A stretch of 64,000 nucleotides of DNA from Candidatus Kapaibacterium sp. (GCA_963665665.1 OY762428.1:4448001-4512000); one strand, 5' to 3'. Shown: positions 3,275 to 55,419, counted from the stretch's first letter. Translations and numbers: made by a program. The notes: generated by a model not told the origin, from the letters alone.

Positions 3275-3552
3275 AGGGTGGAAGTGAAATGAATCTAAGT
3301 ATAATATTATAAATATTCATCATCCCTGCCCCATCCCGCCAGGAACATTATATATTCCCCCGGGCTTTTAAAACAAACAAATTTGGGGAAATTTGCCCCC
3401 GGATGTAATTTTATTTCGGCGGTGCGGGCCATCCTCCTATAGGAATTCTGCTGAACAGGCTTTTGTTGATGTAAATGTATGACAATATTGGCTTTAATAC
3501 CGTTGGTGTGTTCTTTGGAAACAATTTTTTGTGCCGGAAACCCGCTGTTTTA

Positions 3553-3815
3553 TGCTTTCCGAGCGTTCCCCCGTGCTTTCCGAGCGTTCCCCCGTGCTTT
3601 CCGAGCGTTCCCCCGAGCTTCCCGAGCGTTCCCCCAAGCTTCCTGAGTGTTCCCCCGTGCTTCCCGAGCGTTCCCTCGTGCTTTCCGAGCGTTCCCCCGA
3701 GCTTTCCGAGCGTTCCCCCGAGCTTCCCGAGCGTTCCCCCAAGCTTCCCGAGCGTTCCCCCGTGCTTTCGTAGCGTTTCCTAGTGCCTTCCGAGCGTTCC
3801 CTCGTGCTTTCCGAG
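3553..3815. repeat. 21-bp tandem array, ~12.5 units, consensus TGCTTTCCGAGCGTTCCCCCG
   Basis: Units counted directly; low-complexity heptad ORFs appear in all frames. Confidence 0.95.
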
Positions 3816-4379
3816 ACACTTTTTCAGGTAAAATTTTACTCAGAAAAGACAGAGTTTCACTTTTTTGATATAGAATTTCGTTCTATTAGTCCGGTCGATC
3901 CATTTTATCAATTGCTGTTTTTATCCGAAAGTTCCGGTAATCGCTTTTGCCGGGTGATTGTTTTGTATATAAATATTGGGGTTTGCTATGCCCGGCATGG
4001 TTGATAATCCAAAGGCACATAATTTCACTCGGACGGGGGCGGAAATACCCCGTGCGCTTTGCTGCGACGGAATTATTGTTTCGGATTATCATTTTTTTGC
4101 TTGCTCCATTTTATTTCTGCCATTAATAAAAGTAATCATTTCTGAATAAGCACGTTTTACCACAGCAAGACAAGTTGCCGGAAACTTATAAGATTTCAAA
4201 TAACTGACAATTCGCCAACTTTTCATTTTAAAATAACAGATAATATAACCACATATTCATATTAAAATGAATTAATGGTTGAATTATATTAAAAATTGTT
4301 ATATATTTTAGGCAACCTTTGTGAAGGTTTTTTTCTTTGAAATACAAATAATCAGGTTTGAACTATCCCCGGGGTTAGT

Positions 4380-23223: not shown

Positions 23224-23577
23224 AATATTGTTATTTAATAAACATATAATATTAAGGTTTTCCTAACAATTCAGCAAATATTTTTTTCAAATATTCCTGA
23301 TTTTATAAAATATTGAGATATTCAATAATTTATCAATGCACCGATGTTTGATGATATTGCTGCCTTGTTCGTAAGCAAAGAAAGAAAACCTCCCCTATAA
23401 TCCCCTCCTCCCTGAGGAGGGGATAAGAAATTAAATATCATAGAATTAACTCCCCCTCCTTCGGAAGGAGGGGGCCGGGGGGAGGTAGGAAGGGTCTATG
23501 GTAATGTACCAATGTTCAAATCCATTGCCGCCTTATTCTTCTTCAAAGCCCTCTCCTTCGGGGAGGGTTTGGGAGGG

Positions 23578-23804
23578 GTCGGAGTCATTGATGCCTTGGT
23601 CGGAGTTATTGACGCCTTGGTCGGAGTCATTGATGCCTTGGTCGGAGTCATTGATGCCTTGGTCGGAGTTATTGATGCCTTGGTCGAAGTCATTGATGCC
23701 TTGGTCGAAGTCATTGATGCCTTGGTCGAAGTTATTGATGCCTTGGTCGAAGTCATTGATGCCTTGGTCGAAGTTATTGATGCCTTGGTTGAAGGCATTG
23801 ATTA
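23578..23804. repeat. 21-bp array A (GTCG[G/A]AGT[C/T]ATTGATGCCTTG), 10 full units plus a partial unit
   Basis: Units counted directly. Confidence 0.95.
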
Positions 23805-23812
23805 TAATCAAT

Positions 23813-24169
23813 AAGGTCAACCAAGCTGTCAGTAAGGTCAACCAAGCTGTCAGTAAGGTCAACCAAGCTGTCAGTAAGGTCAACCAAGCTGTCAATAAGG
23901 TCAACCAAGCTGTCAGTAAGGTCAACCAAGCTGTCAATAAGGTCAACCAAGCTGTCAGTAAAGCCAACCAAATGTTCAGTAAGGTCAACCAAGTGTTCAG
24001 TAAGATCAACCAAGTGTTCAGTAAGATCAACCAAGTGTTCAGTAAGATCAACCAAGTGTTCAGTAAGGTCAACCAAGTGTTCAGTAAGGTCAACCAAGTG
24101 TTCAGTAAGATCAACCAAGTGTTCAGTAAGGTCAACCAAGTGTTCAGTAAGATCAACCAAGTGTTCAAT
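23813..24169. repeat. 21-bp array B (AAGGTCAACCAAG[CTG/TGT]TCAGT), 17 units
   Basis: Units counted directly; first 7 units carry CTG and the next 10 carry TGT. Confidence 0.95.
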
Positions 24170-24903
24170 GAGGCCAAATTTTACTACAATAAGGCCAAAC
24201 AGTAGTTCAATACCACCGGCCAGGGCAGTTTAAAGCCCTGCAATCCAAGCAATTAGCCCAAACATCAGGATTCTGGTTCAAAACAGTATTGAAATAAGGA
24301 AATTATCCGGTTCATTGAAACCACAGGATGAGGAATTAAGGCCGACGGCCTGTTCATTGGGGTGGAAGAACTGGGGGATAGGGCCGGAGAAGGAGGTATT
24401 ATGTTGTCATTCCCCGACCTGTCGGGGCCAGCGGTGGACAGGTGATTTTCCCTCCTTCCCAAGTTGTACTTGGGAATGAATTTTTCCTGCAAAGTTCTAC
24501 TTTGGAATTATGAAGCTCAGCTTCAAAAGAAAACTGCATTACGAAGTACAACTTCGTAATGAGGGGGAATGTATTAAGAATGGATCCTTCGCTTCGCTCA
24601 GGATGACATGCAGTTTTACCATCGTCAAGTTCAATAGCCACGTGCTTTAGCTCGTGGATAAAGACGCAACGTCCCGAAGACTAAGAAAAAGAATCCACCC
24701 CAGCCTGTCCCGACGTGTCGGGAACTCGCTGCGCTCGCCACCCCTCAACGAGGGGAATTTTCCGGAAATCCACCCCCGCCCTTCGGGCATCCGTCAACTG
24801 GAGCGAAATGAATACATCAACTGTCACCATCTGATGAGGGACAGGGGCTTCGACTCTTTACAGGCATATTTATTATCTTAAAGAAGCGGGTTTAAATCAC
24901 TTT

Positions 24904-53074: not shown

Positions 53075-53297
53075 TCGGCATTCTTAATATTTTGATCTTT
53101 TTCATACTTACTCTCTCATTTGCCATTTACTCTTACCTGATTTACGATTTGAAAATTCATCCATCAGAAAAGAAAAAAAATTTGAGATAACAAATTGATT
53201 ACCAGGCAGTCCTGTTTTCAGATTTACTGATATACTAACAACGGTTTTAGTGGTAAACATTTAACGGTTTAGCCGGTACACTTTGCCCGGTTTGTGC
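53075..53297 (-). mobile_element. Probable IS21-family left-end remnant
   Basis: Minus strand gcacaaaccgggcaaagtgtacc-ggct-aaaccgttaaatgtttacc-act-aaaaccg (reiterated terminal boxes), then MANERVSMKKIKILR from 53126, resembling IstA N-termini. Confidence 0.5.
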
Positions 53298-53604
53298 CCT
53301 GGTCGGAAGCAAAGAAACAAAACCACCCCTGTATTTCCCTCCTACATTAGGAGGGGATAAGAAATTAAATATCATGGAATTAACTCCCCCTCCTTCCGAA
53401 GGAGGGGGACGGGGTTAGGTAAGAAGGTTCGGAAGCAAAGCACCAAAGTTTGATGATATTTCCGCCCTGGTCGTAAGCAAAGCAAGAAAACCACCCCTAT
53501 AATCCCCTCCTACATTAGGAGGGGATAAGAAATTAAATATCATGGAATTAACTCCCCCTCCTTCCGAAGGAGGGGGACGGGGGGAGGTAGGAAGGGGCAG
53601 CGGC

Positions 53605-53946
53605 ATTTCACCAATGTTCGAATCTATTGACGCCTTGGTCGAATCTATTGATGCCTTGTTCGGAGTCATTGCCGCCTTGGTCGAAGTTAATGCTGCCTTG
53701 TTCGACGCTATTGCACCGATGTTTGATGATATTGCTGCCTTGTTCGAAGTCATTGATGCCTTGGTCGGAGTCATTGATACCTTGGTCGAAGTCATTGATA
53801 CCTTGGTCGAAGTTATTGATGCCTTGGTTGAAGATAATGATGCCTTGGTTGAAGTCATTGACGCCTTGGTCGGAGTCATTGATACCTTGGTCGAAGTTAT
53901 TGATGCCTTGGTTGAAGATAATGATGCCTTGGTTGAAGATAATGAG
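53605..53946. repeat. 21-bp array A, copy 2 (16 units, more diverged on the left)
   Basis: ATTGAT[G/A]CCTTGGT[C/T]GAAGT[C/T]-type units counted directly. Confidence 0.93.
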
Positions 53947-53956
53947 CAACCTCAGT

Positions 53957-54208
53957 AAAGTCAACCAAGACCTCAGTAAAGTCAACCAAGACCTCAGTAA
54001 AGTCAACCAAGACCTCAGTAAGGTCAACCAAGACCTCAGTAAGGTCAACCAAGACCTCAGTAAGGTCAACCAAGTCCTCAGTAAAGTCAACCAAGACCTC
54101 AGTAAGGTCAACCAAGTCCTCAGTAAGGTCAACCAAGACCTCAGTAAGGTCAACCAAGACCTCAGTAAAGTCAACCAAGACCTCAGAAAGGTCAACCAAG
54201 TCCTCAAT
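53957..54208. repeat. 21-bp array B, copy 2 (AA[A/G]GTCAACCAAG[A/T]CCTCAGT, 12 units)
   Basis: Units counted directly. Confidence 0.95.
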
Positions 54209-55419
54209 GAGGCCGAATTTTAATACAATAAGGCCAAACAGTAGTTCAATACCTCGGGCCAAGGCAGTTTAAAGCCCTGCAATCCAAGCAATTAGCCCAA
54301 ACATCAGGATTCTGGTTCAAAACAGCGTTGAATTAAGGAAATTATCCGGTTCATTGAAACCACAGGATAGGGAATTAAGGCAAAATGATGAGATATTGAA
54401 GTGGAAGAATGAGTAAACAGAGCAAAAGAATGAGGTGTTATGTTGTCATTCCCCGACACGTCGGGGCAGGCTTCCGGAGCTTGCGACCGAAGAATCCATC
54501 TTTGTTTGCAGATAATGTATGAAGAATGGATTCTTCGCTTCGCTCAGGATGACATGCAGTTTTACCATCGTCAAGTTCAATAGCCACGTGCTTTAGCTCG
54601 TGGATAAAGATGCAAGGTGCGGAGGCAAAGAAAAAGAATCCACCCCGACTCGCTGCGCTCGCCACCCCTCAACGAGGGGAATGTTTATAAAACCAGCCAT
54701 CCCGAAAGCGGCGTAGCCGCGACATTTTTGTAGAAAGGCGAATCCGGAAAGGACAACAGCCCCGTAGGGGCGACATTGGCAAAAGATTGTGTCGCTCCTA
54801 CGGAGCTTTTAATAATCGCAATGTAAACATTATCTACAAAAATTCCGCTCCTACGGAGCTTTTTATATAATTCCGATGCTCTTGCGACTGAAGAATCCAT
54901 CTTCGTTTGCAGATAGTGTGTGAAGAATCCACCCCGACTCGCTGCACTCGCCACCCCTCAACGAGGGGAATTTTAAGAATCCACCCCCGCCCTTCGGGCA
55001 CTCGTCCTAAATTAGGAGGGGATAAGAAATTAAATATCATAGGATTAATTCCCCATCCTTCAGAAGGAGAAGGCCGGGGGAGTTAGGAAGAGGCAGAAGC
55101 AATGCACTGATGTTTTAAGCCATTGCCGTCTTATTCTTCTTCAAAGCCCTAACTTTTTGGGAGGAGCGGCCCCTTAGGAGGATACCTGAGCGTGTTTGGG
55201 AAGGGGGGCGTAAACTGTATTGGAAAAATTAAAAAACCGCGACTTTAATTATTACGTGGATTCCGGATGTTTAATATTTGAACCTTGGAATTATATTATG
55301 GTCATCACAATAAACTCAAATTAAACATACTGAAAAGAATAATTATTTTATCTGTTCCTGTAATTCAATTTTGAAGTATATTATTATTCGGTTTATGTAT
55401 TTAATTATTAAGAATTTTT

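Follow-up and report, generated by a model that had tools for sequence, protein, structure and literature searches.

Two loci in a 64,000-nt stretch of the Candidatus Kapaibacterium sp. genome (GCA_963665665.1 OY762428.1:4448001-4512000, hereafter the window) are each built of two facing arrays of 21-nt units around a short centre. A preliminary description, made from the sequence of the window, had proposed that selection acts on the paired blocks of a hairpin while each copy homogenises its own loop sequence, like a copy-specific barcode. The question raised by these loci is whether such an architecture is held by pairing, by the coding of repeat peptides or by protein binding, or whether it is that of a non-coding repeat.

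Both loci were recovered by TRF as two adjoining 21-nt arrays, A then B, with copy numbers (A+B) of 10.8+17.1 in copy 1 and 15.6+12.3 in copy 2. Their features are the following (positions in the window).

23577-24167: copy 1 as a whole, two adjoining 21-nt arrays, A then B (TRF)
23340..23592, plus strand: copy 1, A-side mosaic with an A-unit fragment, a GGAGGGG hairpin module and a second hairpin
23593..23801, plus strand: copy 1, array A, 10 units
23793..23816: copy 1, centre, 24 nt between 23784-23792 and 23817-23825
23802-23807: copy 1, apex TTATAA
23816..24172, plus strand: copy 1, array B, 17 units (7 inner of CTG type, 10 outer of TGT type)
24173..24390, plus strand: copy 1, conserved tail (multi-copy alignment)
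53605-54208: copy 2 as a whole, two adjoining 21-nt arrays, A then B (TRF)
53297..53610, plus strand: copy 2, A-side mosaic with two GGAGGGG/CCCCTCC hairpin modules and A-unit fragments in between
53611..53945, plus strand: copy 2, array A, 16 units of 21 nt with consensus GCCTTGGTCGAAGTCATTGAT, outer units degenerate
53937..53960: copy 2, centre, 24 nt between CTTGGTTGA (53928-53936) and TCAACCAAG (53961-53969)
53946-53951: copy 2, apex GCAACC
53960..54211, plus strand: copy 2, array B, 12 units of 21 nt (GTCAACCAAGNNNTCAGTAAG)
54212..54427, plus strand: copy 2, conserved tail 3' of array B (multi-copy alignment)
54428..55100: copy 2, B-side mosaic of other small hairpin modules, common to most copies

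Array A is made of the unit GCCTTGGTCGAAGTCATTGAT and array B of GTCAACCAAG-NNN-TCAGTAAG, which is its inverted, diverged counterpart (reverse complement), 13 of the 21 positions being complementary at the best rotation. In copy 2, 14 of the 16 A units carry the core and the other two are degenerate yet in register; homology of this copy with the others begins about 654 nt before the centre. The descriptive part of the preliminary account was accurate throughout. The spacing of 24 nt between CTTGGTTGA and TCAACCAAG is exact in both copies, the apices TTATAA and GCAACC were read at their centres, and counting in register reproduced 10 A + 17 B units in copy 1 and 16 A + 12 B in copy 2. Likewise, all reported unit variants are present, both in B (CTG and TGT versus ACC and TCC; AAGG, AAGA and AAAG) and in the inner A units (TGC, CGC and TAC; AGTC, AGTT and AGAT). 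The predicted fold of the strand is a long interrupted hairpin, more stable than any of 100 shuffled sequences as RNA (z = -7.2) and as DNA (z = -5.1).

These two loci belong to a large family. The genome consists of one contig of 5.46 Mb (38.6% G+C), against which copy 2 gave 96 BLAST matches. A centre-pattern search recovered 39 double-array copies, window pair included, with a pattern that itself requires the 24-nt spacing; in a pattern-free check, 19 of 22 adjacent opposite-type arrays displayed the corresponding 36-nt hexamer offset, the remaining three having variant hexamers and being included among the 39. Four apex classes were distinguished (ACATGT in 26 copies, GTAACC in seven, TTATAA in four and GCAACC in two). 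Unit numbers ranged from 2 to 27 in A and from 5 to 20 in B. The conserved tail is about 220-240 nt long and could be aligned gap-free over 243 columns in 38 copies, a length that counts the preceding 21-nt B unit and the array-closing stretch; the 39th copy, devoid of the anchoring marker, stayed outside this alignment.

All 39 copies are intergenic, between long ORFs, and none lies inside another long ORF. Flanking gene pairs were convergent in 15 cases, divergent in four and tandem in 20 (chi-square p=0.044). A modest orientation bias along the leading strand (24-28 of 39) varied with the placement of origin and terminus, which were located from GC skew and gene strand bias. The surrounding repeat mosaics span 0.6-3.25 kb (1.2-2.6 kb in 35 of the 39). 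Different modules lie at their outer ends, which have no terminal sequence in common; neither terminal inverted repeats nor defined ends were found at the boundaries of the 39 regions, which sets the family apart from MITEs. No mobilisation mechanism was found, nor were target duplications in the joint comparison of these boundaries.

The mosaics are dense and G+C-rich, as seen in the window at 53297-53600, 54428-55100, 23340-23590 and 24400-24790, with modules such as GGAGGGG...CCCCTCC, GTCATTC...GAATGAC and GCTCCTACGGAGC followed by a T run. Small hairpin modules of this kind are common to most family copies and to other loci, and some are inserted into A arrays. Two copies (G000:C1:1775562 and 1776979) lie only 1.4 kb apart; their A arrays and flanks read identically and their B arrays have 7 and 8 units, which looks like a recent tandem duplication of the whole element.

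In the genome-wide comparison of units, variation matched the consensus paired/unpaired status more closely than it did any codon phase. Over all copies, the entropy of B units was 0.87 at unpaired versus 0.37 at paired positions (permutation p=0.007) and that of A units 0.99 versus 0.63 (permutation p=0.05), the permutation p being above 0.24 for each codon phase. This was also observed in the two window copies taken alone, where unpaired and paired positions displayed 0.86 versus 0.05 in B (permutation p<0.0001) and 0.62 versus 0.33 in A (p=0.05), and where no codon phase reached p<0.29. The opposite outcome, a better fit to the synonymous positions of one frame, was not encountered.

Homogenisation differed between the two arms. 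B units differed at 1.76 of 21 nt between neighbours, 2.39 within an array and 5.14 between copies, and the corresponding values for A units were 5.89, 6.28 and 6.54. B arrays are thus strongly homogenised within copies and A arrays hardly so: the proposed homogenisation of loops within each copy holds for B (2.39 within versus 5.14 between) and fails for A (6.28 versus 6.54). The B loop triplets are of only five types (TGT, CGT, CTG, ACC and TCC), apart from single units with ACA and AGT. These five are common to many copies and follow the apex class, so that loop variants mark subfamilies, not copies, and the notion of a barcode private to each copy had to be abandoned. Mosaic B arrays also exist, for instance with seven TGT units followed by six CTG units, which points to recombination among subfamilies.

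The model put forward in the preliminary description, in which a structured RNA or single-stranded DNA hairpin would have its paired blocks under selection and its loops homogenised per copy, draws on this excess of variation at unpaired positions and on the fold stabilities given above. The comparison of paired with unpaired positions is partly circular, since the two arms are inverted homologues and slowly changing positions stay complementary by descent. Shifting the B arm by one to three whole units left complementarity at the variable 'paired' positions unchanged, for example at 0.65 versus 0.64-0.66 (position 6 of A) and at 0.54 versus 0.54-0.56. Arm-level correlations of complementary alleles were rho 0.47, 0.07 and 0.25. 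Compensation was counted in the 27 of 39 copies with at least four units on both sides (four units per side, 52 pairs). In these, 94.8% of cells paired versus 92.8% in shuffles, a value that none of 500 shuffles reached, which favours pairing. The two measures that are robust to relatedness were not significant: eight pairs displayed a double change versus 6.9 in shuffles (134 of 500 reached eight), and 25 pair types were recorded versus 24.7 (291 of 500).

All 25 distinct rows displayed complementarity at the innermost unit pair, where two pair types occur, again as expected of a selected hairpin. Pairing of the variable G-C/U-A swap fell outward from the centre (25, 19, 14 and 16 of 25), and the U-A rows of the innermost swap are those of the GTAACC subfamily and thus amount to about one event. 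Compensatory changes specific to the pairing register at several independent pairs were not found among the 27 copies. Selection on the paired blocks is therefore not shown, whole-unit shifts being equal and double changes tracing to about one subfamily event. Further points against such a model are the loop types common to several copies, the widely differing lengths of A and B arms within a copy, variants whose arms lie 0.5-1.2 kb apart (see below), and the TTGG core, which is invariant also in arrays of another family, D, that have no inverted partner and adjoin a C array in direct order. Altogether, we consider it unlikely that the paired blocks are selected as this model has it. 'Lone' A arrays were tried as a control without partner and dropped, since seven of nine have an inverted B/E-type array 0.5-1.2 kb downstream; their entropy profile correlated with that of paired A arrays (rho 0.88). 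Rfam gave no match at gathering score in the region of copy 2, only four at E 0.3-0.93, far below it.

Whether any frame is coding was examined next to pairing, and open frames turned out to be a poor guide. Whole A arrays were open in R1(+) in 30 of 39 copies, in R2(+) in 30 and in R2(-) in 36; whole B arrays were open in R2(+) in 36 of 39, in R1(-) in all 39 and in two further frames in 39 and 38. With four of six frames open almost everywhere, openness discriminates nothing. Substitutions were hence taken from networks of unit types one base apart (229 edges in A and 118 in B). The ratio of synonymous to expected changes ranged over the six frames from 0.50 to 1.35 in A (0.25-1.40 with types seen at least twice) and from 0.52 to 1.30 in B, where the best frame contained stops; counting substitutions against the consensus gave the same picture. 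Over all counts, the highest B ratio was 1.39, again in a frame containing stops. In the tail (158 variant alleles), the range was 0.57-1.44. An excess of synonymous change in one frame was not found in arrays or tail over the six frames, nor was any 3-periodicity of variation in array entropy or in the tail. No protein-level constraint was seen in any frame.

The main rival to a non-coding reading is a pair of convergent heptad-repeat micro-genes, A on the plus strand and B on the minus strand. The A product would consist of xLVExID heptads and the B product, starting in the tail (M-FGLIALLAGL...), of xLVDLTE heptads; both would end just past the centre, so that the two 3' ends overlap in the palindrome, and a majority of the copies may be paralogues in decay. 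The 21-nt period equals seven residues, and B R1(-) is the frame open in all arrays. Codon usage is gene-like in exactly these two frames, A R1(+) scoring 0.24 and B R1(-) 0.35 where real genes score 0.30 +/- 0.10 in frame and -0.45 +/- 0.24 in their other frames, with a score that rests on about seven codon types per unit and on two arms that are not independent. A R1(+) also displayed the highest synonymous ratio (1.35-1.40). In this best A frame, however, the third bases of the TTG and ATT codons never vary across 595 units, and entropies next to them are about 1 bit or above. Moreover, TAA-bearing units were amplified in two arrays. On the minus strand, a TAA follows the only conserved ATG, the putative start, by eleven codons in 27 of 38 copies; the synonymous share of B R1(-), 0.75-0.97, is near the neutral expectation, and that of the tail is 1.02-1.17 overall, the value of 1.44 resting on only 17 events. 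Composition of the products would be extreme, hydrophobic and acidic with almost no basic residues.

Convergent genes gain some support from other loci. In spaced A/B variants (G000:C1:3087700-3090200 and 1698900-1701200), an A array that has its own end precedes a spacer, an inverted E/B-type array and the tail, in this order, and ATG-started R1 ORFs of 295 and 199 aa with conserved ends face each other across the spacer, which is 0.45-0.75 kb long, AT-rich and itself roughly 21-nt periodic. The R1(+) reading matched three called ORFs in the same genome and four on other contigs, all of the same repeat make-up. Database searches argued the other way. Neither the R1(-) ORF nor the plus-strand through-frame ORF had called relatives among 5.8 billion protein clusters. 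Nine candidate ORFs, each with its longest start, were absent from the protein collection by exact look-up, and the neighbouring response-regulator gene of the same contig is present in it. Against proteins of 60 relatives, the R1(-) ORF found only weak heptad look-alikes (E 8.5e-4 to 5.8e-7), and Pfam gave nothing above chance. No homologue sharing a non-repeat part was found in the protein cluster, library and relatives' protein searches. We regard convergent genes as possible, at a confidence well below even. Its fuller form is rather doubtful: about 45 micro-gene pairs of an uncultured Kapabacteria-like bacterium, antisense to each other with 3' ends overlapping in the fixed palindrome, would form a recombination-shuffled, contingency-like repertoire in which one strand gives hydrophobic/acidic peptides and the mirrored arm does the same on the other strand.

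Another way of reading the element as coding uses the plus strand for both arms, as a co-directional pair or a single coiled-coil gene. B would be read from the apex ATG as (V/I/A)(N/K)Q-x-(F/L/W)-x-(K/E) heptads ending ...NEAKFHYIKAKQ, possibly with coupling to an acidic A peptide terminating 8 nt 3' of this ATG. An in-frame ATG does lie at most 24 nt before B in 35 of 39 copies, and the end NEAKFHY(I/N)KAKQ-stop is conserved, save for the stop codon, which is lost in 4 of 38. The reading resembles real coiled coils, matching 204 Pfam families (E<=1) and 1560 proteins of the library (E<=0.001). Yet, seven of eight matches examined were low-complexity heptad proteins of unrelated organisms without any shared non-repeat domain, and the eighth (P0034) was a short ORF with near-identical ANQVFSK units between unlike flanks; the Pfam matches were rejected as generic coiled-coil noise. 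With a synonymous ratio of 0.79-0.80, a codon usage of -0.18, outside the range of real genes, and the lack of called relatives of its through-frame ORF noted above, a plus-strand gene is very unlikely. A -1 frameshift site (TTTAAAC) in the tail was also considered and discarded, the frames not connecting on inspection by eye. As for heptad-repeat (coiled-coil) proteins at large, the likeness lies in the period of seven residues and in hydrophobic positions that recur in R1 and R2; the present arrays differ from them by four frames open at once, no purifying selection and no homologues with a shared domain.

Arrays A and B are part of a wider set of 21-nt repeats. Over the whole genome, TRF recorded 364 tandem arrays, 123 of period 21 and 108 of a multiple of 21; together, these 231 arrays cover 50,325 bases (0.92% of the genome). 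Three further 21-nt array families, C, D and E, were found beside A and B. Family E is B-like and carries the same tail as B. Families C and D adjoin each other in direct order: elsewhere in the genome, array C is followed by a D array (GTCGTCTTAGCCTTGGTTCGT) and then by a shared end. In the window, family C, which is likewise dispersed, occurs at 3475-3868 (array 3553-3815) with 12.5 copies of the unit TTTCCGAGCGTTCCCCCGTGC and a conserved leader. The idea that the unit contains a sub-repeat of about 10.5 nt was dropped, as its second motif is not kept in B. Promoter and terminator scans of the arrays yielded no informative sites.

Families A, B, D and E have the core CTTGKT in common, and in A the bases T5, G6, T8, A16, T18 and G19 are invariant in 595 units. 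Such constraint at the nucleotide, not the codon, level is what candidate sites for a DNA-binding protein would display, arranged as in iteron or centromere-like arrays, with 21 bp corresponding to two helical turns and the sites in two facing orientations; the AT-rich spacer, seen only in the spaced variants, would suit them too. An origin or a centromere would not be dispersed over about 45 chromosomal loci, though, and arrays of up to 27 units are longer than known site arrays. Binding-site arrays are a highly improbable explanation.

The repeat DNA was not found in 60 related genomes, apart from one 30-nt match (E 4.9e-4), and a pattern scan for the centre geometry in one genome per species returned only four unrelated loci. 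In four DNA runs from two studies, sequencing depth over the repeat was about 30-90x that of its flanks. Contigs of these runs break at the edges of the repeat regions, so that neither unit-number variation nor transcripts are visible in them. Contigs of the second study carry the family at high depth, and a close strain thus has it too. That the family is lineage-specific is held together with its non-coding, mosaic nature, as one reading and with the same, about even, confidence (see below).

Facing arrays of other sequence do occur elsewhere. A cyanobacterial MAG (L036 1400-1690) displayed an inverted 21-nt array pair of unrelated sequence, GGCTCATACCTGGCTTGGTTT facing a partial complement. 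Two Acidobacteriota MAGs (L035 and L037, about 1490-1600) have inverted heptamer arrays, TTCTTGG facing CCAAGAA, which sit after genes like terminator hairpins. In a relative of the same order (L040 1-322), a contig starts with 15 copies of the unrelated 21-nt unit CCTCAAAAGCTTTACGGACTC, a hint that other genomes of the order contain 21-nt arrays as unresolved repeats.

The reading that we favour, with roughly even confidence, is that of a mosaic interspersed repeat, lineage-specific and non-coding, whose core is an inverted minisatellite. It is taken as non-coding because synonymous excess and 3-periodicity were not found, TAA-bearing units were amplified, open frames were uninformative and databases held no relatives. 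It is taken as a repeat family because of its 39 copies, constant centre, intergenic mosaics, variable unit number and concerted evolution. The fold stabilities (z = -7.2 as RNA and -5.1 as DNA) and the lack of an Rfam match are counted in its favour as well. Several observations count against it: the gene-like codon usage in the mirrored R1 frames and the synonymous ratio of A R1(+), the 21-nt period, which equals a heptad and is common to several array families here, the spaced variants, which look like a convergent ORF pair, each ORF with an end of its own, on either side of an AT-rich spacer, the fact that gene callers called the R1(+) frame in three copies here and on four other contigs, and the negative outcome for a mobilisation mechanism, terminal repeats and target duplications.

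Under this favoured reading of a non-coding repeat, the core would be a quasi-palindrome, with an A array facing a B array of diverged complement across the fixed 24-nt centre. Replication slippage and unequal recombination would probably account for the gain, loss and homogenisation of units, and copies may also exchange sequence with one another. The conserved blocks would represent the core motif of the family (CTTGKT plus A.TG), brought into both arms by one inverted duplication; with the motif inherited by both, the arms would stay complementary over their length even if pairing were not selected. A hairpin or cruciform nucleus may be held at the centre and the innermost units only. Copies would be retained mostly at sites where little damage results, next to gene 3' ends. 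A transcribed copy would form a long imperfect hairpin, with termination or stabilisation of transcripts as a possible effect.

Comparison with known systems revealed partial likenesses. REP units are short imperfect palindromes, a REPIN is one inverted pair of them, and RAYT transposases are associated with both. The present elements share with REP, BIME and REPIN sequences an intergenic, mosaic occurrence, inverted hairpin-forming pairs and a preference for gene 3' ends. A Y1 transposase gene is also found in this genome, at 1.82 Mb (a Y1_Tnp ORF of IS200/RAYT type, 155 aa, G000:C1:1821817-1822161, above the Pfam cut-off). Their units differ from those of REPINs in being non-palindromic and tandemly iterated, which places them outside the REPIN/RAYT class. 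MIRU minisatellites of mycobacteria are single direct arrays of 40-100-nt units, without inverted pairing or a palindromic centre. Here too, about 40 intergenic tandem loci of variable unit number are dispersed over the genome, and the unit has a length that is a multiple of three and is open in several frames; unlike MIRUs, the arrays are paired in inverted orientation around a palindromic centre.

A further likeness concerns BOX elements of Streptococcus pneumoniae, which are organised as boxA-(boxB)n-boxC, with one array of larger boxB modules and unique ends (PMC3049150). Both these and the present elements are dispersed intergenic composites whose length varies with the tandem number of an internal module, both have predicted stem-loops if transcribed, and both are clustered with other small repeats and enriched away from promoters (PMC3049150). 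Differences lie in the 21-nt unit, present here in two facing, mutually complementary arrays (2-27 units) around a fixed centre, and in terminal inverted repeats and defined ends, none of which were found here; there is no sequence relation. Many dispersed intergenic copies with an internal module in variable tandem number are the hallmarks of a BOX/BIME-like class, and by analogy the repeat most likely works like BOX or BIME elements, as a functional class and not as a sequence family. The element belongs to none of the sequence families tested and is unusual mainly in its architecture and abundance.

Should the loci be convergent genes after all, they would constitute a large family of antisense-related, overlapping repeat-peptide genes, of which a narrow literature search found no description. 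A more general caution applies to the search for structures: where homologous arrays are inverted, conserved positions take on the look of 'paired' ones even with no selection for pairing at all. If the non-coding reading is true, this genome is an example of how widely minisatellite-like DNA is able to spread within a bacterium, one family having settled into a constant inverted architecture at 39 loci.
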